DNA of 64,000 nt, taken from positions 320,001 to 384,000 of the forward strand of contig CAWCPV010000003.1 of the NCBI GenBank assembly GCA_963797555.1, in the 5' to 3' direction. Positions 6,015-64,000 of the stretch are shown in pieces. The position numbers and the translations under genes were made by a program. Position 1 is the first letter of the stretch; each line of letters begins with the position of its first letter. Below the pieces are notes generated by a model. That model was not told where the DNA came from, ran no database searches, and was given only the letters and a program-made list of their open reading frames with translations. Source of the stretch: an uncultured Gammaproteobacteria bacterium. GTDB lineage: Bacteria > Pseudomonadota > Gammaproteobacteria > CAWCPV01.

Positions 6015-7934
6015 GCAAATCCCTATATGAACGCGGCCTGGAGCTGGACCGTGCGGAGGCCAAGGTCGACGCTGCCCGCAAACGCCGTGAGCGGCGCAAG
6101 GCCAACGGGGCGGGCGAGGCCCCGGCGACCGACGCGGATGGCAGGCCGGTTATTCACTGGGTGGGTGGTGCGCTTGAACAAGCGGTGTCCGCTGCCGAGG
6201 CCGCCATCCTGGCCGACGGAGGGGAGGCCATCTACCAACGCGCGGGATCATTGGTGCGCGTGGTACGGCTGCCGTCCGGCACCGTTCGAGGATTCAAGCG
6301 CCCCGATGGCACGCTGGGCATCCTGCCCGTGGAAGCCGGCTATCTCACGGAGCGGTTCAGTGTGGCCGCTAGTTGGGTACGCTGGGACGACAGGACGATC
6401 GATGGGTGGAAGCGGATCGCCCCCCCGCCCAAGCGGCGAATACCTACCTGGCTCGGAGCGGGAAGTGGAGCGTGCCAGCACTCACGGGGCTGGTCGCGAC
6501 ACCCACGCTGCGCCCGGATGGAAGCCTGCTGAGCCTCCCTGGGTACGACGAGGCGACCGGGCTGCTGTACGTGCCGGGAGGACTCGTATGTCCTTCGATA
6601 CCCGATCATCCGACCTATGAGGACGCGCGAGCCGCGATCGAGGTACTGCGCGAGCCGTTGGCGGGCTTCCCGTTTGCCGACACGCAAGCCATAGCGTCGT
6701 ACTGTCCGCAATCCTCACGGCGCTCTGCCGCCATGCGCTGCGCTCGGCACCGCTGCTCGGCTTCGATGCGACCGTCATGGGGAGCGGCAAGACTCTTCTG
6801 GCCGACGTGGTGGCGATGATAGCCACCGGCCGCCGAGCTGTCATCATGGCGCACTCGCCCCAACCCGAAGAGGAACGTAAGCGCCTGCTCTCTGTGCTGT
6901 TGGATGGCGCGCCGCTGGTGGTGGTCGACAACATCGGGGCGACGTGGACATCCGACGCGCTGTCCGCAGTTCTGACCGCGGAGACCTTCAAGGATCGCGT
7001 GTTGGGGGCGAACCGCATGGTAGAGGCACCTACGGCGGTTACCTGGCTCGCGACGGGGAACAACCTGACGTTTGCCGGAGACCTGGCAACGCGCGTGTTG
7101 GTGGCTCGCATCGAGCCTCAGTGTGAGCGCCCCGAGGAGCGTCGGTTCGAGCGCGATCTCTATGACTGGATACCACGGCACCGGGGAATCCCGGTGGCCG
7201 CCGCACTGACCATCCTGCGCGCATACCAGGAGTCGGGCAGGCCAGACATGAAGGTGAAGCCATACGGACGCTTCGAGGACTGGTCGTCATGGATTCGATC
7301 GGCGCTCGTGTGGCTCGGGGAAGCGGACCCTTGCGATACACGCGGCAGTATCGAGGACGCTGATCCGGTGCGATCTCAATTGCGGGATCTGCTAGGCGCC
7401 TGGCATGAGCGTTATGGCACTTCCGCGGAGACGATAGCGCGCGCCATCGATGGCGGAGGAGACCCACTGCGTGCAGCAATGTATGCGATTGCCGGAGAGC
7501 GCAACGACATCAACACGCGAAAGCTCGGGCGTTGGATGCTGCGGCACAAGGGGCGCATTGTCGACGGCAAGAGCTTTGGCCAGCACCGGAGCGGGCACGC
7601 GGCGCGATGGGCTGTCGTGGTGACTCAAAAAGAAGGTAGCGGTTATTGCTCTAAATGCGGTTACCCCCATAGGGTGGATCAAAATTGTCAAAACAACACA
7701 GATAGTGTGGATAATAAAGAGACCGACAATTCTGGGGGGGTGAGTGGGGCAAACCGCAAACATACCAGTAACCGCAGACCCGAGACCCGCCAACCCGGCT
7801 CCGGCGACCACCTCGTGCGCTGCGCCGATTGCTCGCGTTACCGTTGGGCAGAGCGTTGCGGCGCCGGGCTGTACTCGGGCGATCCGTTGAAGCCTAGGGA
7901 CTGTCCCGAGTTCGAGGTGCGATCAGGCACATGA
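6011..7934 (+). CDS. Satellite replication P-loop ATPase/helicase, split across frames (6011-6532, 6373-6819, 6777-7934)
   Basis: YQRAGSLVRV and PTLRPDGS..PGYDEATGL motifs, Walker A GSGKT, Walker B VVVDN, ATGNNL. Confidence 0.7.
7639..7775. promoter_or_regulatory. Candidate replication origin of E1
   Basis: GCGGTTA x2 facing (T/A)AACCGC x2 around an AT-rich core containing DnaA box TGTGGATAA (7706-7714). Confidence 0.5.
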
Positions 7935-51970: not shown

Positions 51971-52542
51971 AGCCATGCACTGCAAAGGCAAACCCAGTTG
52001 GGGCGATGTACCGGCCCGCGTCGTCGTTTGACCGGCGACGTGGCGGAGCGACCACCGTCTGTATCGCCTCGCGCTTGGGCACGACGTGACGGACATAGAG
52101 CCAGCACCAAGCTCTCGCGGGCACCACGGTGAAAATCCCTTGGCGCGGCGGACCCGGTGCTGGACGGTAGCGATCCACCGCAGACGGGACCCGGCTCTCC
52201 GCAACCGCTCGCCACGAAAACGCGTCCGCGAGACCAGCGATGTGACAGATGCTGACGACGCCGTGCGGCCGCGTCGGAAGACCGACAGAATCGTAAAACG
52301 GCCCGGCGCCTTCCCCACTTCTTCTCTCACCGATCGATGTGTCGCCCGCGTTGAGGTCATCGCGGCGCTTGAGGGGCTCCACGCTTGATCCGCCGAGCGA
52401 GCCGACCGGCCGCGTGCGCCCGCGGATGCACGCACCCGACGCGCGCGGGAGCATTTTGCGAAGCCGCCCGCCTGTTGTAGTATGCCAGAGGCCGTTATCC
52501 GGCCCCTCAGCAGTCTCGACAACCCATCAGAGGAGAAATGTT

Positions 52543-52899
52543 ATGAACAGATATGGTCTGAGAGCGTTAGCACTCGCTGCCGTCTTCGCCGGCACCGCAT
52601 CCCTCGCCTTGTCCGCCATGGCCCAGCCCCCCGCTCCGATGGGGCCCGGCCCCCGCCCCACGCCTCCCATGACGCGCGGCTTCATGGCGATGGACACGAA
52701 CCACGACGGAAAAATCTCCAAGGAAGAGTTCATGCAGCGATGCGAGGAGCGCTTCAAGCGTTTGGATGCGAACGGGGATGGGTTCATCGAGCCCGATGAG
52801 ATGATGCCCGGCGTGCGCAGGAGAATGCCTGCTCCCGTGACGCCCCCGGCCGCCCCGGCGCAGCCGCCCGCCCCGGCACAGGCTGCGCCCCACGAATAG
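52543..52899 (+). CDS. Exported EF-hand protein
   Basis: DTNHDGKISKEE and DANGDGFIEPDE. Confidence 0.9.
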   Translation: MNRYGLRALALAAVFAGTASLALSAMAQPPAPMGPGPRPTPPMTRGFMAMDTNHDGKISKEEFMQRCEERFKRLDANGDGFIEPDEMMPGVRRRMPAPVTPPAAPAQPPAPAQAAPHE

Positions 52900-54273: not shown

Positions 54274-55465
54274 CTAATCCGTTGGGGGCCGAGGCGCAGT
54301 CACGCCCGGTCCTTGCTCGATCAGCCGGCGGTAGAGGTCCAGCATGCGCCGCGCGCAGGCTCCAGCCGACCAGCGCTCGGCATAGCGCCTGCCCGCAGCC
54401 GACAGCTCGCGACGCAGGGCGCCGTCGCAGAGGACTCGCAGGACCTTGTCCGCGAAGTCACCGACGTCTTCCTGGGCGATGACGGCGCCTTCGCCTTCGC
54501 GCAAGACATCCCCGGTACCCATCACGGCCGTTGAGACGACAGGCACCCCCAAGGCCATCGCTTCCAGCAGAACGAGGCCCTGCGTTTCCGTTCGCGAGGC
54601 AAAGACAAAGGCATCGGCGGCACAGTAACAGTCCATGAGGGGACCATTGCGTGAGAGGTAGCCCACGAAGATCGTGTTTTCCTGCAGCCGCAGGTGGGCC
54701 GCTCGCTGCTCCAGAGCCCGCCGTGCGGGGCCTTCCCCCGCGATGATGAGGAGCACCTCCGGCAACGTCTGGCGCACGCGGGTTAGCACGTCCAGCAGAA
54801 AGCCGATGTTCTTCTCGAAGGCAACGCGGCCGATGACAGCGACAGTCGGGCGGTCGGTCCGGATATCGTGCCGACGTTCGAAACTCGGCGCCGTTGCGGG
54901 CACCGAACTGACTGAGATCAATGCCGGTCGGAATCACCTCCAAGTGCGCGGTCCTCACGCCGTAGCTCGCGAGCCGGTCGCGCATGGCTTGGGAGGGCAC
55001 CACAACCGCGTCCGCGCGACTGCACTGTCTTCGCGACAAGCTCCGCACAGCTCGCCGCAGTGCGAAGGCCGGCACGAACGGCGCATAGTGCTGCAGATAT
55101 TCTTCGAAAAGAGTGTGGTACGTCTCGACGACGGGAACCCCCAGCCGCCGCGCCAAGCGGATACCCGCATAATGCGCAATGAACGGCGTCTGTATGTGCA
55201 GGATATCGAAGCGCTGCCGCTCGAGCTGCAAAGCCAACGCTCCGACCGACCGAGCCTGCATCATGCGATCCTCGGGGTCTGCGAAGACGTGCCGGGAGCG
55301 GATGCGAATGACGCCGGCTTCCTTAGCCGGGGATTGTCCGTACTCTGGGGCAATCAGGATGACCTCGTGCCCCTCCTTCTGGAACTCCCGCCGGAACGTC
55401 TGTATCGACGTGGAGACCCCGTTGACGCGGGGAAAATACACATCGGACACCATGAGAATGCGCAC
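54274..55465 (-). CDS. GT4 glycosyltransferase (one frameshift ~54880)
   Basis: SDVYFPRVNGV, HIQTPF and ETQGLVLLEAMA motifs. Confidence 0.9.
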
Positions 55466-55823
55466 GAGGGACTCCGTCCGGGGACGCCGGCAGGCTGCTC
55501 TCACCGCCATTCCGCCTGCCGTAGGCCGCTGCGCCGATGGCCAAGGGTTCGTGGCACAGCTCACGGGCGAAGTTGACCTCCGACGCGGCCACCATGGTCC
55601 TGCAGAAGTGTTACAAAATCGTGACGGGGACGATGGCCGCCCGGATATGCGCCCTGACGCCTCCGAACCATGCCCCTGGGTCCATTCGGCTCCCGTCTCG
55701 TCGACGAACGGCTTTGGTGCCGTCCTCGCGGACTCGATGACCCCGACGAGTACGGCTTGGAGCTGGCCGAGCGCACGCCGCCTGTCCTCGACCGCGAGTC
55801 GCGCTCAGCCTCCGCGGTCTGTC

Positions 55824-59003: not shown

Positions 59004-60617
59004 GTGAGGCGCTACGCCTTGCTGGTGGGGGTCGATGCCTATGCAGATCGCACCATCCCGCCGCTGCGTTTTGCCGAGCGCGATGCGCAGGCGCTGGCGC
59101 GGGTGCTCGCCGAGCGGTACGGATTCGAGGTTCGGTGCCTGGTGGGGGAGCAGGCGCGGCGCGAGGTGATTATCAAGGTATTACGGACAGGGCGACTCTC
59201 GGAGAGTGTCGCTCCCATGGAGTCCAGCGATCAGTTTCTGTTCTTCTTCGCCGGGCACGGCGAGCTGGTGGGTAGCGACTATATTCTGCATCCATGGGAT
59301 GGCGATGCGGGGATCGACTTGCAGTCGATCACCATGAAGGCGATCCGCCGTCTACTGGGCCGCGACGTGCCGTGCGGGGAGTGCATGTGCATCCTGGATG
59401 CCTGCCGCAATCTGGCGCCGGCGGGGGCGCGGGGCGGACAGGCGCTCGACGCGCAGTCGGCGCGCGATATTGCGGCGGTGCCGCAGGCGGCGCCGGGCAA
59501 GCTCATCGAAGTGCTCTACGGCTGCCAGGAGGGGGGCCGCAGTTGGGAGGATGAGCGGCTCGGGCATGGGGTACTGAGCTACCATCTGCAGCAGGTGCTG
59601 GAGGGTTCCCCGCCGGGATCGTTCGAGGAACTGGCCGACCAGGTGAGCGATGCCATGAGCGGCTGGCGCCACGGGCAGTTCCAGCGGGTCGGGCAGGTGC
59701 CGCATCTCTACCCCCGACCCGGCCCTGGATTTCCCACAGCGCCTCACCCGTGCCCATATCGAACAGCGCCACCGACCCCCCCGACAATCACGCGGTCCTC
59801 CGCGGTCAGGATTACCTGCCGGATGACGCCCCGTCCAAACTGCCGCACCATACCTTGTTCGACAAGGCCCGGCGAGACCCACACCCGCGGCCGGATCACC
59901 ACCTCCAGGCGGATACGCCGCCGTGTGGGCCGACGGGCTGCGCGGTGAGCCCCGACGGTACGCTGGTGGCGGTGGGTGAAGGTACGGAGGTGCAGCTTTG
60001 GCATCCGGCCCGCGGCGAGCTGACGGCGCGCCTTCGGGGGCACCACGGCGGGGTGGAGAGTGTCGCCTTCAGCCCCGACGGACGGCTCGTGGCATCGGGC
60101 AGTTATGATCACACGGTGCGGCTGTGGGAGGTGGCAAGCGGCAAGGAGCCGAAGTGCCTTCACGGGCACGATGACTCAGTGGGGAGCATCGCCTTCAGCC
60201 CGGGTAAAGAGTGTGGCCGTCAGCCCCGACGGGCGGTGGCTCGCCTGGGCCGGGTACAGGACCGTGCGGCTGTGGGACTTGGCCAACGGCAGGGAGCTGA
60301 AGCGCCTTCAGGGGTATGACGGCTTGGTGGATAGTGTCGCCTTCAGCCCCGATGGGCGGCTGCTGGCCTTGGGCGGGCCTGACTGGACGGTGCGGCTGTA
60401 CGAGATAGCCAGCGGGAAGGAGCTGAAGCGCCTGCAGGGGCACGGTGGCGCGATCAGGAGGATAGCCATGAGCCTGGACGGGCGGCTGATGGCTTCGGGT
60501 AGCTACGACGGCACCATTCGGCTCTGGAAGACGGAGATCGCCAGCAGCGTGACGAAAGGGACCGCGGCTGAAGCGCAAGACGCTGCCGCGGCAGGGTTAG
60601 GCCAGAGTCCGCGCTAA
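59004..60617 (+). CDS. Caspase-like (C14) protease plus WD40 repeats, broken by frameshifts and an inversion
   Basis: YALLVGV, FFFAGHG and ILDACR dyad; GH...V.SVAFSPDG...SGSYD.TVRLW repeats. Confidence 0.85.
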
Positions 60618-60618
60618 C

Positions 60619-60822
60619 ATGGATTGGCTGAAGTGGCTGGAGCTTCTTATCTGGACGATCCTTGTCCTCGGTATCCTGCGATGGGTATGCGACCGGCTGA
60701 TAGGCAGCGAAGCCTGCGACCAGACGGTCGGGCAGCTCGCTGCCGACTTCATCAAGTTCGTTCTGTTGGTCCCTTTCCGGCTGCTGCGCTGGATATTGCG
60801 TCAAGCAAGAAACGACAGGTGA
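60619..60822 (+). CDS. Small membrane protein
   Basis: Two hydrophobic segments; tightly coupled to both neighbours. Confidence 0.6.
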   Translation: MDWLKWLELLIWTILVLGILRWVCDRLIGSEACDQTVGQLAADFIKFVLLVPFRLLRWILRQARNDR

Positions 60823-62150
60823 GTTCGGTGCCCGACGAGTTCGAATCCAGGTACGTACGGCTGCTTGCCGAAAGAGGCCGCGACGTCGAGGGGAGACCGA
60901 TCGGTGCCGGCACGCCGGTAGTGGCACATCCTGTGGCTCCCGATGAATTCATGCAGGACACCCCGGAGACCCGCGCGACATTCGTGGAGAAGGGTTACGC
61001 CTGGACGTCGGCGACGCTCGAGCGCGTGATCGCGCAGGCCATCAGCCAAGACCACGAACTCGAGGACGTCTTGGATAACGCACAGGGAGCCAAGCAAGAG
61101 TTCGTCGGCAACATCGACGCCAATCTCGCGGGCGCCAAGGGGCAGCCGTTTCCGGAGTCGCACGTTTCTCTGTGGTCCTACGTGCTGCCATGGCAGCCGG
61201 AGATTACCTCTGTGGTCTCGCTGGGCACCCTGACGGAAACCGTGCTGCACGGGACGTGCAAAGAGCTGTGCGTCCCGGTCCAGGTGGAGCGCGCGGGCGT
61301 TTTCGCCGCAAGCATCACAAAGACGAACGAGGTGAGAATCTACGGGGTTCGGGGGGGGCGGGGCCTGTGGGTGCATGTCGTTTCGGGATTTGTGACACCG
61401 CTAACCTACCTGAGCGGGGGCAGAATCGGCGTGAAAGCGCCGGACGCGGCGGTCGTCGAAGTGTTGCGTGACAGCTATCTCGCGTGGGCGAAGGCTCGCC
61501 CGCCTCGTGGAAGGCACCCGCAGTACACTTACTTCACTCTCGGGAGCCTGCTGCACGGGGATTCGCAGACGATGGGAAGCCGAAGCGGGCGGGACTGCGT
61601 ACTCTATTCTTACTATCATAGGGGAGGCGAGTGGGCACCCGGTAACCCGCCGTCGACTTCCGAACCCCCTTCGGTGCAGGATTTCATCGACCGTCTCCTG
61701 CCAGAGACCGCGGACCGTCGAACGTCCAAGATCAAGGCGCTCATCGACACGCAAATCGGAGAGCAGTGGGGCAGCGTCACCGTGAACAAGGTGGCACGGG
61801 CGACCGGGTACCTCCCCAGAGCCGTCCGTAATGCGCTGCTGCGTCTGCAGCGGGAGGGGCCCTATCACCTGTACATGGCCGGAAGGGAACTGGCGGTCCG
61901 CGCGGCGGTGCCGGGCGAACGGGCTGACATCACAGAGAACACGTTCGAGCGTGGGTGGCTGCGTAGTCATGCCTGGTCCATGCTAAGCATGGCGCTAGGC
62001 GTCGGTGCTTGGGCCCTCAAGGGCATCTTCATGGGCGTCGGGATTCACGCCTATGACCTAGTGCTCGTGGGGGCCGTTGTTTACGTTGCGAACCTTATCG
62101 GTTTGGCGGTCAAGCAACGGGCATTGGATGACCGGGAGCGTGCGTCATGA
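60819..62150 (+). CDS. Hypothetical protein with a possible winged helix and two C-terminal TM helices
   Basis: GTGA overlap start; VTVNKVARATGYLPRAVRNALLRLQREG; hydrophobic tail. Confidence 0.7.
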   Translation: MSSVPDEFESRYVRLLAERGRDVEGRPIGAGTPVVAHPVAPDEFMQDTPETRATFVEKGYAWTSATLERVIAQAISQDHELEDVLDNAQGAKQEFVGNIDANLAGAKGQPFPESHVSLWSYVLPWQPEITSVVSLGTLTETVLHGTCKELCVPVQVERAGVFAASITKTNEVRIYGVRGGRGLWVHVVSGFVTPLTYLSGGRIGVKAPDAAVVEVLRDSYLAWAKARPPRGRHPQYTYFTLGSLLHGDSQTMGSRSGRDCVLYSYYHRGGEWAPGNPPSTSEPPSVQDFIDRLLPETADRRTSKIKALIDTQIGEQWGSVTVNKVARATGYLPRAVRNALLRLQREGPYHLYMAGRELAVRAAVPGERADITENTFERGWLRSHAWSMLSMALGVGAWALKGIFMGVGIHAYDLVLVGAVVYVANLIGLAVKQRALDDRERAS

Positions 62151-62765
62151 GCAGACATGGGCTCGGCGAGCAACTGTACGTGCTGATCGGGAAGCTGGGT
62201 CAATGGCTCAGGCTCCGGCCTGCGGAGATGGATCGGCTCATGCGTCTCCGTGCTCGGGTGACGGAATCGCTGGCCGCAAATCAGGATCGGCTCGACGTGC
62301 TCAAAGAGGAGATAAGCAGCATCGAGAAGCGGCTGTTACGTCTAAAGGGTGATCTGAGATCGCGCCCGCGGTGAGACCAAGGAAATCATCGGGCGCGAGG
62401 TCGCGCTGTCGTTCCAGTCCCTTGATGGTACGCGCCCTCGACAGGACATCATTATCCAGAATATTGCGGCGCTCACGGCGACCCTGCGCAAGATCGACGA
62501 AGCCATCGATGCGCAGCACCGTGGGGTGAGCGAGTTGGACCTGGACGACCTGAGTTTCGAGGTCGAAGACCGCTTCGTCGAGGTCCAGCGCCGCGACGTT
62601 GCGCTGCGCGATCTCATCAAGGTTCGGTATTCCCCGCCTGCCGCAGAGGCTCTCAACGTCGCCGGTCGGCTTGCCGAACTGGAGGGCGCCGAGACGAACA
62701 GTGTTCCCGAAGGATTGTCCGCCGCCACGCAGAAGAGGCTTCGCGAACTGGATGCGGAGGATTAG
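62147..62765 (+). CDS. Coiled-coil protein, ESCRT-III/Snf7/PspA-like (frameshift ~62360)
   Basis: Basic helical N-half, acidic C-half (GVSELDLDDLSFEVED), terminal QKRLRELD. Confidence 0.55.
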
Positions 62766-62908
62766 GGTGATCGTGGTGCAGCTACCCAATGAATCGTGGG
62801 GGGCCGGACCCCGGTACTCGACTCCGTGTCGCGCGAGGGGTCCAAGCGCAGACAGCGTGATTCAGTTCCGGGGCCGCGTCGTGCGCGGGCTATGCGAGGA
62901 GATCGAGA

Positions 62909-63938
62909 ATGACCTTCTTTGACCTTTTCAAGTCTCAAAAAGATCGGGACCGGGACAGGGAGAAGCGTGGAACGTTATCTCGAAGATGCGTACGGACTCA
63001 TCGAGATAGCCGAAGAGCTCCGGGTCAAGGCTCGCGCCAAGCCGGCGCTGGTCCACGAAACCCATTACGCGGACGACGAGTCGTCCTCGCGCTGGGTGAT
63101 CGAGCAAAGACCCGAAACGAGGCTGGATGACGTCGCCGGATTGGAAGAAGTCAAAGAGGTCGTGCGCGATACGATCATCCTTCCCCTGCGCAAACCGGAT
63201 GTCTACGAGCGTTTTCGCGTGAGACCGGGCGGCGGTGTTCTCATGTATGGACCGCCGGGGAACGGAAAGACCTATATTGCCCGGGCTATCGCCGGTGAGC
63301 TGGACGCAGCCTTCATTGCCGTCGACCTTGCCGCCGTGAAGAGCAAATACGTCGGGGACACGGCCAAGAACCTGAGGAGCATTTTCGACGAAGCTCTCCG
63401 GCACGACAGCGCGGTCATCTTCCTCGACGAGGTGGACGCCCTGTTGTCTCGCCGGGGTAACCGTCGGGTCGATTCTGTACCCCAGTTCCTCATGCTGACC
63501 GACGGGCTGGTCAAGACCGAGCGGTGTTTGTTGCTGCTCGGAGCGACCAACCAGCCATGGACCCTGGACGATGCCGTCCTCCGTCCGGGGCGCCTGGGTA
63601 TCCATCTCTATGTCGGGCCGCCTGACGCCGAGGCGAGAGAGGGAATCCTTGCCATTCACATGAGGGGGGCTCCGATGGCGGAGGACGTGTCCTTTCCCGA
63701 TATTGCCTCCAAGACCGAAGGGTACAGTGGCGCCGACGTTGCTGCGGTGTGTCACTCCGCCAAGATGATGGCAATCAAGCGGCAGATCGCTACCGGCAAC
63801 GACGAGCAGGTCACTCAGACCGATCTCCTCAAAGCTCTGGAAGTCATTGCCCCAAGCACGTCTCCCGCCTTGCTCGAGGATTTCGAGCGCTGGCGGAAAC
63901 TGCGTGCCCGGCCCAGTGAGGACGACGAGCAGGACTGA
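62909..63938 (+). CDS. Single-cassette AAA+ ATPase, Vps4/CdvC-like (N-terminus disrupted)
   Basis: LDDVAGLEEVKE..ILP, GPPGNGKT, SKYVG, FLDEVD, GATNQPW.LD, GYSGAD and C-terminal helix. Confidence 0.85.
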
Positions 63939-64000
63939 CGGTTCGGGGCACGTGGGATCGCGCGGATCTGGACTGGTAGGCCCGATCGGGACGATCGCCC

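Follow-up and report, generated by a model that had tools for sequence, protein, structure and literature searches.

A probably decayed gammaproteobacterial gene cluster points to a bacterial Snf7/AAA ATPase operon with linked caspase-like proteases

Which gene, if any, encodes an ESCRT-III subunit in a bacterial cluster that combines a caspase-like protease, membrane proteins, a coiled-coil protein and an AAA ATPase, and could such a cluster still work? The question is raised by the end of a 64,000-nucleotide stretch of DNA from an uncultured gammaproteobacterium (genome G000, C3:320001-384000), called the window here, whose positions are given below without a prefix. A first-pass annotation had read the genes from 59004 onwards as an ESCRT-III/Vps4 module coupled to a caspase-WD40 protein, and had taken a coiled-coil protein of ~205 residues, which we call A1, as the ESCRT-III subunit. 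What the window likely contains, in our reading, is the first half of a conserved bacterial operon of Snf7-family, AAA ATPase and caspase genes, in a damaged and decayed copy. The cluster is the counterpart of a conserved Snf7-AAA operon with caspases, so that the annotated operon stands in outline, but the wrong protein was called ESCRT-III: the Snf7-family gene is a neighbour of A1, intact in relatives and reduced to a remnant in the window.

The intact operon is seen in a Verrucomicrobiota metagenome-assembled genome (MAG; G457), where it spans the end of one contig (locus L016) and the start of another (L003). L016 carries, in this order, a DUF4384 coiled-coil protein, a membrane protein, A1 (203 residues), a protein of 218 residues and the ATPase; L003 carries the ATPase, then a caspase-domain protein and, further on, a papain-like peptidase. 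The L003 ATPase is the closest relative of the window ATPase in the species-genome collection (54% identity) and the single close one; the nine further, distant AAA genes returned by this search of genome contigs were not used.

The 218-residue protein matches the Pfam Snf7 model with E = 1.8e-5 (24.9 bits against a cut-off of 27.3), as do 11 of the 13 aligned Snf7-like proteins from related loci (alignment A2) at E <= 0.01, the best with E = 8.7e-9. Against the sequences of the PDB, the profile of these proteins finds yeast Snf7 best (E = 1e-4 to 2e-4), together with Heimdallarchaeota ESCRT-IIIB (E = 0.015). A profile search of a 5.8-billion protein set, in which 8000 candidates were scored, returns at least 428 relatives at E <= 0.001, and a hand count finds precomputed PF03357 in 68 of 120 listed relatives. 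The N-terminus M-G-x-x-D-L-F-K-S of the Snf7-like proteins recalls what we take to be the membrane-inserting motif of eukaryotic ESCRT-III subunits. As judged from its sequence, the neighbouring gene of 218 codons is a genuine member of the Snf7 (ESCRT-III) family. Its relatives come from MAGs labelled Dongiaceae, Thermodesulfobacteriota, Hydrogenedentes and Phycisphaeraceae, with Verrucomicrobiota also among the labels.

What remains of this gene in the window is a GAGGAG box, an ATG at 62909 and ~20 codons, with the open reading frame (ORF) starting MTFFDLFKSQKDRDRDREKR, as compared with MAIGDLFKSKQERERD at the start of the intact G457 gene (L016:13164-13820). The remnant runs straight into the sequence for the final helix of the ATPase N-domain, with a frame offset of one base, and ~0.75 kb is missing.

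Linkage of the genes was followed in two sets of loci. The A1 profile matches 15 of 401 sampled Verrucomicrobiota genomes and, G000 aside, none of 400 genomes of G000's own phylum; A1 relatives were likewise absent from the 60 same-class genomes searched. Around each of 14 Verrucomicrobiota A1-profile hits ~19 kb was fetched and searched by tblastn with G457 and G000 proteins, which places the ATPase in 12 of these loci, the Snf7-like protein in 11, the membrane protein in 5 and a caspase-like protein in 2; two loci carry nothing but a weak A1-like match. In-house hidden Markov models (HMMs) agree overall, an agreement that is not independent of tblastn, as these models were built in part from the same loci.

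The second set comes from a scan of metagenome contigs, from the Joint Genome Institute (JGI) and other sources, with the G457 Snf7-like protein. It comprises 42 loci that all stem from one query and so represent one subfamily, many of them close kin. The ATPase lies directly 3' of the Snf7-like gene in every locus with at least 300 nt downstream (34/34), usually with overlapping stop and start codons. A1 lies directly upstream of the Snf7-like gene in 16, and anywhere in the locus in 19, of the 31 loci with at least 700 nt upstream. In 11 loci the contig extends at least 4 kb to either side; of these, caspase-like genes are found in 10, the membrane protein in 10, A1 in 10, the membrane anchor in 9 and DUF4384 in 5. 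Clustering the 11 by their Snf7-like protein at 85% identity gives 5 groups, and caspases occur in 4 of the 5. Conservation of the neighbourhood, a check proposed along with the annotation, is therefore borne out both for the Snf7-ATPase adjacency and for the caspase-like genes.

Individual loci depart from this layout. Two Snf7-like genes flank A1 in L034. In L073 and L079 three caspase-like genes lie between A1/anchor and the Snf7-AAA pair and more follow downstream, for totals of five and seven, the latter being the largest number in one locus; this suggests that the protease part of the cluster turns over rapidly. A second form of the cluster occurs in the Verrucomicrobiota loci L039-L045, with the order Snf7-like gene, ATPase, A1-like, in which the A1-like regions lie inside ORFs of ~300-340 residues; L039 carries a further AAA gene of two-domain size (677 residues).

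With this arrangement as a guide, the features of the window cluster read as follows; L001 denotes a fetched stretch that reaches the next 12 kb past the window.

59004-60617, + strand: caspase-like (C14) and WD40 gene, copy 1, disrupted (Pfam Peptidase_C14 and WD40)
60619-60822, + strand: small hydrophobic ORF of 67 residues, uncertain as a gene (ORF list)
60819-62150, + strand: membrane-anchored protein of ~443 residues, likely start GTG 60819 (frame reading; long ORF from 60624)
62147-62765, + strand: A1-family coiled-coil protein, 205 residues if read through (three-frame translation, one +1 frameshift)
62909-62968, + strand: probable Snf7-family gene remnant, ATG and ~20 codons (comparison with L016:13164-13820)
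62919-63938, + strand: single-cassette classical AAA ATPase, 339 residues (Pfam AAA, E = 8.1e-32; AAA_lid_3, E = 5.6e-14)
63847-64000 and on to L001:6801, + strand: polytopic membrane protein, start uncertain (tblastn with the G457 homologue L016:11520-12473)

The ORFs of the cluster, from 59004 to the window end, lie on the + strand, are co-oriented and mostly overlap, and every one that had been described is present. The guess that the cluster runs on past the window also holds: next come the membrane protein, a second caspase-WD40 gene and a DUF4384 coiled-coil protein. The second caspase-WD40 gene (copy 2; L001:6798-8972) is an intact paralogue of 724 residues, and the coiled-coil protein has 513 residues with a C-terminal DUF4384 domain (E = 2.4e-9).

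The window copy is probably dead, as a deletion has removed the Snf7 gene along with two thirds of the N-domain of the ATPase, and no fewer than four of the cluster's genes are disrupted; read in this way from its sequence, the cluster would be an inactive relic. Its lesions comprise the ~0.75-kb deletion, a +1 frameshift in A1, a frameshift in the downstream membrane gene, and an inversion plus a frame change in the caspase-WD40 gene. The downstream membrane gene is recovered by tblastn as two pieces in different frames (L001:5970-6263 and 6244-6792), which places its frameshift near L001:6244-6263. In A1, three-frame translation and the homologues locate one extra base at about 62360-62363, which is repaired by a four-letter step in which AGAT is read as R.

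The caspase-WD40 gene is present as annotated, but its breaks are not plain frameshifts. Copy 1 has a caspase domain at 59004-59711 (Peptidase_C14, E = 3.8e-21) and WD40 repeats that Pfam places within 59750-60617, split over two frames with the frame change near 60200; beyond the inverted segment described below they run from 59936 to 60617. The motifs FFFAGHG and ILDACR, which presumably hold the catalytic His and Cys, are readable in both copies. Copy 2 is an 83%-identical paralogue, whose WD40 part is many bases longer than that of copy 1, and relative to it a segment of ~210 bp (about 59711-59920) is inverted in copy 1: tblastn aligns residues 1-237 of copy 2 in one frame at 73% identity and residues 289-318 on the minus strand, and this region, once reverse-complemented, matches copy 2 in the forward direction. 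The segment, which may be a fixed rearrangement, a switch or a misassembly, has no clear inverted repeats at its edges. Read joints at 59714/59935 and within 60081-60369 do not count as evidence for a polymorphic inversion, as the contigs are only 88-92% alike and fit the paralogue or WD40 genes of other organisms. The NCBIfam model of EACC1-associated caspases gives 37.9 bits against a cut-off of 140.

Could the locus instead be intact in the living organism, with frameshifts, inversion and deletion all introduced by errors of MAG assembly that the caspase-WD40 paralogues and repeats have aided? Repeats and paralogues do invite misassembly, the completeness of G000 is 84.6%, and neighbouring genes are split as well (a MazG-like gene in three pieces and, putatively, the ORF pair at 54274-55564). 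We nevertheless consider this improbable. The long reading frames of G000, 29 of them of at least 1200 residues and the longest of 2329, argue against a high rate of indel errors; a 0.75-kb deletion is atypical of base-calling error; and no second Snf7 copy was found elsewhere in G000. Short public contigs (151-215 nt, from three soil metagenome runs of one study, the soil label being based on small shares of words) agree with the assembly at two lesions: the A1 frameshift site is spanned by one contig of 151 nt (62357-62498) and the deletion junction by contigs from two runs (62893-63043 and 62918-63080), in every case with 0 differences and 0 gaps. These contigs reach two lesions only, with no read support in either direction for the inversion or the remaining frameshifts, and they may stem from the assembly's own sample and so not be independent of it, which tempers their weight in favour of decay.

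The public run X3 adds an observation on the Snf7 remnant. Its contig matches 62918-63080 exactly but carries 52 unlike letters upstream (window 62866-62918), which, in frame, give the remnant a different start; this suggests that a second variant of the locus with the same deletion junction exists in the same study.

What would the intact operon do? Its order runs from the anchor (sometimes with a papain-like peptidase as part of it) through A1, the Snf7-family gene and the AAA ATPase with a helical N-domain of ~70 residues to the membrane protein and one or more caspases, with or without DUF4384. The Snf7-like protein, probably with A1 as a second subunit, would polymerise on the cytoplasmic membrane, where the membrane anchor may nucleate or recruit the polymer. 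The N-domain of the ATPase would bind the C-terminal helix common to A1 and the Snf7-like protein (R-L-K-x-L), and the ATPase would extract subunits from the polymer in the fashion of Vps4. The caspase-like peptidases, with their WD40 or membrane sensor parts, would be triggers or executioners that either activate the polymer through cleavage or bring about cell death, with the polymer limiting or shaping the damage to the membrane. That many bacteria own a working ESCRT-III and Vps4-like ATPase of this kind (Snf7 plus a divergent A1), wired to caspase-like proteases, is a tentative proposal, and we lean somewhat against its holding in full. A Vps4-like job of the ATPase is favoured by the constant adjacency of the Snf7-family gene, by the small helical N-domain and by the C-terminal motif that A1 and the Snf7-like proteins have in common.

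The A1 family supplies part of this case. A HMMER search of 1.84 billion representative proteins gives 104 matches at E <= 0.001, of which 58 reach 1e-10 or better. Leaving aside two matches that are fragments from the window itself, nearly all have a length of ~200 residues, and their alignment to the read-through product begins at about residue 8 and extends through its end. The repaired length is natural because these homologues align end to end, which justifies the frameshift repair already made in the annotation; a programmed +1 frameshift was rejected, as the homologues are uninterrupted ORFs. A word-index search with the C-terminal 135 residues returned the window's own fragment only. 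The basic N-terminal half and acidic C-terminal half noted for the coiled-coil protein are confirmed: the window protein has net charges of +6 and -9, the N-terminal half is the more positive one in 61 of 61 aligned members, and the medians are +3 and -11. The C-terminus, noted as QKRLRELD, reads ...QKRLRELDAED after repair, and most members end in ...LSxxTxxRLKxLExE, a conserved helix that carries R-L-x-x-L. The pattern R-[LIV]-x-x-[LIM] occurs within the last 20 residues of 36/61 A1 proteins, 7/13 locus Snf7-like proteins and 102/120 listed database Snf7-like relatives, as compared with 4-5% of internal 20-residue windows, the pattern having been derived from the same sequences in which it was counted. 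Conserved glycine breaks in the A1 alignment are spaced in a way that hints, indirectly, at an ESCRT-III fold. By ESM Atlas features the named clusters nearest to A1 are Snf7 (0.86), PspA (0.83) and SNF7 (0.83), below the 0.9 at which the tool reports a lead.

The ATPase family was aligned over 12 members, with the N-domain aligned separately (A4), and all 12 retain Walker A and the other invariant AAA positions. Of the ~70-residue N-domain found in its orthologues, the window ATPase is missing roughly residues 1-48 (helices 1-2); it has no native start codon, and homology to the G457 ATPase starts at RYLEDAYGL. The helix ERYLEDAYGLIEIAEELR, in which the annotation had seen an echo of a MIT domain, is indeed the last helix of the orthologues' ~70-residue N-terminal domain, but Pfam detects no MIT there. 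The motifs from which the ATPase was called Vps4-like, DDVAGLEEVK...IILP and GATNQPWTLD, are present as well, but the scores do not single out that family: the NCBIfam models give 226 bits for CDC48, 210 for PAN, 198 for CdvC and 185 for FtsH, scores that all fall far short of the cut-offs. The models rank in this order for an intact orthologue too, with the CdvC alignment beginning at model position 63, past the MIT part. GATNxPW is followed by R-x-G-R-x-D in 10 of the 12 ATPases, which we take to be the CDC48/FtsH/proteasomal form rather than the Vps4 form.

Set against a working ESCRT-III/Vps4 pair in this operon are several results on both proteins, and the role of the intact operon is itself inferred from gene context. 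The ATPase appears from its sequence to be a generic classical AAA protein that cannot be placed in the Vps4/CdvC family. Pfam MIT is found in the N-domain of none of the 12 members at E <= 1, and a MIT scan of the 401 Verrucomicrobiota genomes gives no match at the cluster loci and only weak ones in large unrelated ORFs; MIT and Vps4_C are unlisted, by precomputed Pfam, in 16 of 16 single-cassette database relatives, and Vps4_C (PF09336) is undetected in the window ATPase at E <= 0.1. Against the PDB, the N-domain finds designed helical repeats best, and the chitin synthase chain 2mpk, presumably a MIT domain, reaches only E = 0.56. On the side of A1, the first-pass identification as ESCRT-III fails at the level of sequence, with no relation to Snf7 or PspA detectable by Pfam, PDB profile or hhalign. 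The repaired protein matches neither Pfam model even at E <= 10, and at E <= 0.01 Snf7 or PspA_IM30 match 0 of 61 family members; against PDB sequences phmmer finds nothing and the profile finds designed coiled coils only. Comparison of the A1 and Snf7-like profiles by hhalign gives 9.7% probability in a plausible register, or 1.2% with larger alignments in global mode, and cross HMM scores between the two families are no better than reversed-sequence controls. Comparison with a three-sequence PspA profile gives 0.4%, in a comparison that has no power, since the Snf7-like family is likewise unmatched in it. The strict MIM1 form LxxRLxxL occurs in only 6 of the 61 A1 members.

These same results lend themselves to a different account, in which the ATPase, as an unfoldase of the CDC48 or IetA kind, supplies the linked proteases with substrates or regulates them, with the Snf7-like and A1 proteins as adaptors or substrates and no membrane remodelling at all. 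The CDC48 and PAN models do score highest, MIT and Vps4_C go undetected in the ATPase family, the proteases are the most constant accessory genes, and the PADLOC IetA models match the ATPase with E = 2.3e-34 and 1.9e-34. Yet the classical AAA models all score alike and none attains its cut-off, and PADLOC leaves five of eight orthologues without a match, the rest being the AAA ATPase and two caspases. An unfoldase of this kind also leaves unaccounted for the Snf7-family gene that always lies directly upstream of the ATPase, the two membrane proteins in the cluster and the short motif in which A1 and the Snf7-like proteins both end, and we regard it as distinctly unlikely. Somewhat less so, though still doubtful, is an intact system that performs envelope upkeep or vesicle formation in the manner of PspA and Vipp1, with the caspases as processing enzymes. 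Bacterial PspA and Vipp1 are known for membrane repair, according to PMC8281802 and PMC7619361, and PADLOC v2 offers models for none of the Snf7-like, A1, membrane, DUF4384 and anchor proteins. Upkeep sits poorly with the sporadic distribution (15/401 Verrucomicrobiota, and 0/400 in G000's phylum besides G000), with caspase-like genes that are variable and multiplied up to seven per locus, and with the MazG, ImmA/IrrE-peptidase and putative XRE genes that adjoin the cluster in G000. The cluster moreover decays in G000 while a canonical PspA is retained far from it (C3:620782-621435, L047:1501-2154; PF04012, 163.7 bits). Sporadic spread, variable caspases, island neighbours and decay with PspA kept fit an accessory role in conflict or cell death better than housekeeping. 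Among the 31 genomes searched for PspA (G000 and 30 of its class), 4 have a match at E <= 1e-10.

How does this caspase-wired Snf7/AAA operon compare with systems already described? It resembles the archaeal and eukaryotic ESCRT-III/Vps4 (CdvB/CdvC) systems in that a Snf7-family gene adjoins a single-cassette classical AAA gene with a small helical N-domain, in that A1 and the Snf7-like protein have a basic N-terminal half, an acidic C-terminal half and a short conserved end helix, and in that paralogous small subunits can lie side by side, as with the two Snf7-like genes around A1 in L034. It differs in being bacterial, in an ATPase that by HMM scores is no nearer to CdvC than to CDC48 or PAN and has no Pfam MIT or Vps4_C, and in a terminal motif that is not strict MIM1; the cluster also adds caspase-like proteins, DUF4384, a papain-like peptidase and membrane proteins of its own, and no ESCRT-I/II or CdvA is recognised. 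Like PspA and Vipp1, the proteins are bacterial and membrane-associated, but the operon's 218-residue protein matches the Snf7 model and not PspA_IM30. PspA works with PspF, which is not a classical AAA protein. In its multiplied caspases, fused to WD40 or sensor parts and found in accessory islands, the cluster recalls the caspase-like conflict systems described by Kaur et al. 2020 (PMC7159879). The IetAS anti-phage pair, an IetA AAA ATPase with an IetS protease, also links a classical AAA protein to a protease, with PADLOC IetA matches at E of about 1e-34; unlike IetAS, the ATPase here reaches 117 bits with NCBIfam IteA against a cut-off of 510, its associated proteases are caspase- and papain-like, and the gene that constantly adjoins it belongs to the Snf7 family.

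In the literature, PspA and Vipp1 are placed in the same superfamily as Snf7 (PMC8281802), a Vps4-like ATPase "appears absent in bacteria" (review PMC7619361), and ESCRT homologues can be identified in archaea "but not in bacteria" (abstract of PMC10936438). Ravi et al. 2024 (PMC11237479) report VPS4-like AAA+ ATPases that were transferred to bacteria, with an example in which a TPR-6TM gene takes the place of snf7; in the operon described here Snf7 is present. The word 'caspase' is absent from the main text of that paper, whose supplementary tables may list the operon. By full-text search, Snf7 does not occur in PMC7159879 or in its 2021 successor PMC8195603, and such searches brought up no description of a caspase-linked Snf7-AAA operon in bacteria. 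The Snf7/AAA/caspase system is under-described and partly foreshadowed in print.

The occurrence of the Snf7-AAA pair in several bacterial groups contrasts with reviews that place Snf7-type subunits and Vps4 in archaea and eukaryotes and see PspA/Vipp1 as the branch found in bacteria. If the ATPase remodels Snf7-like polymers, the origin of the ESCRT-III/Vps4 partnership would become testable in bacteria, and the view that bacteria have no Vps4-type partner would be contradicted. The operon would then also tie a caspase-type protease to membrane remodelling outside animals, and would parallel, in prokaryotes, the connection known from animals between membrane damage driven by caspases and its repair by ESCRT-III. 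The window copy is itself of lesser value and serves mainly as a pointer to the family.

The remaining genes of the cluster are less telling. The 67-residue ORF has no tblastn match in any of the 16 related loci searched and is matched only in L001 itself, and Pfam gives only a sub-threshold DUF2975 match (E = 0.042); its stop overlaps the GTG at 60819 from which the anchor protein likely starts. The anchor protein has a conserved N-terminal region and a hydrophobic C-terminus (alignment A8). By BLASTP its residues 78-505 align with residues 373-854 of L003:5073-7643 (E = 9e-47), so that the C-terminal 480 residues of the papain-like (C1) peptidase of L003 are homologous to the anchor, which is fused to a peptidase in some relatives. 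It may contain a weakly winged-helix-like stretch, its best PDB matches being helix-turn-helix regulators with E = 0.34-0.39. The G457 homologue of the polytopic membrane protein matches Pfam LpoB weakly in its middle part (E = 1.5e-4, 22.2 bits against a cut-off of 22.3).

Several observations concern the surroundings of the cluster. Past the window, a nucleotide pyrophosphohydrolase-like gene of the MazG/MazG_C type is broken into three overlapping ORFs in different frames (L001:10539-11727), whose pieces match MazG with E = 3.4e-4 and MazG_C with E = 5.3e-33 and 1.3e-39. Further on, on the minus strand (L001:13188-15264), lies a fusion of 577 residues that joins an ImmA/IrrE metallopeptidase (Peptidase_M78), a chagasin-type inhibitor (I42) and a papain-like C1 peptidase, an unusual case of a protease with its own inhibitor-like domain; the small ORF that precedes it reads as a putative XRE-type regulator. 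Upstream of the cluster, the overlapping minus-strand ORFs of 368 and 215 residues at 54274-55564 lie in different frames and are, from their translations, putative halves of one glycosyltransferase. The translation of a small ORF at 52339-52899 contains two EF-hand-like loops, DTNHDGKISKEEF and DANGDGFIEPDEM.

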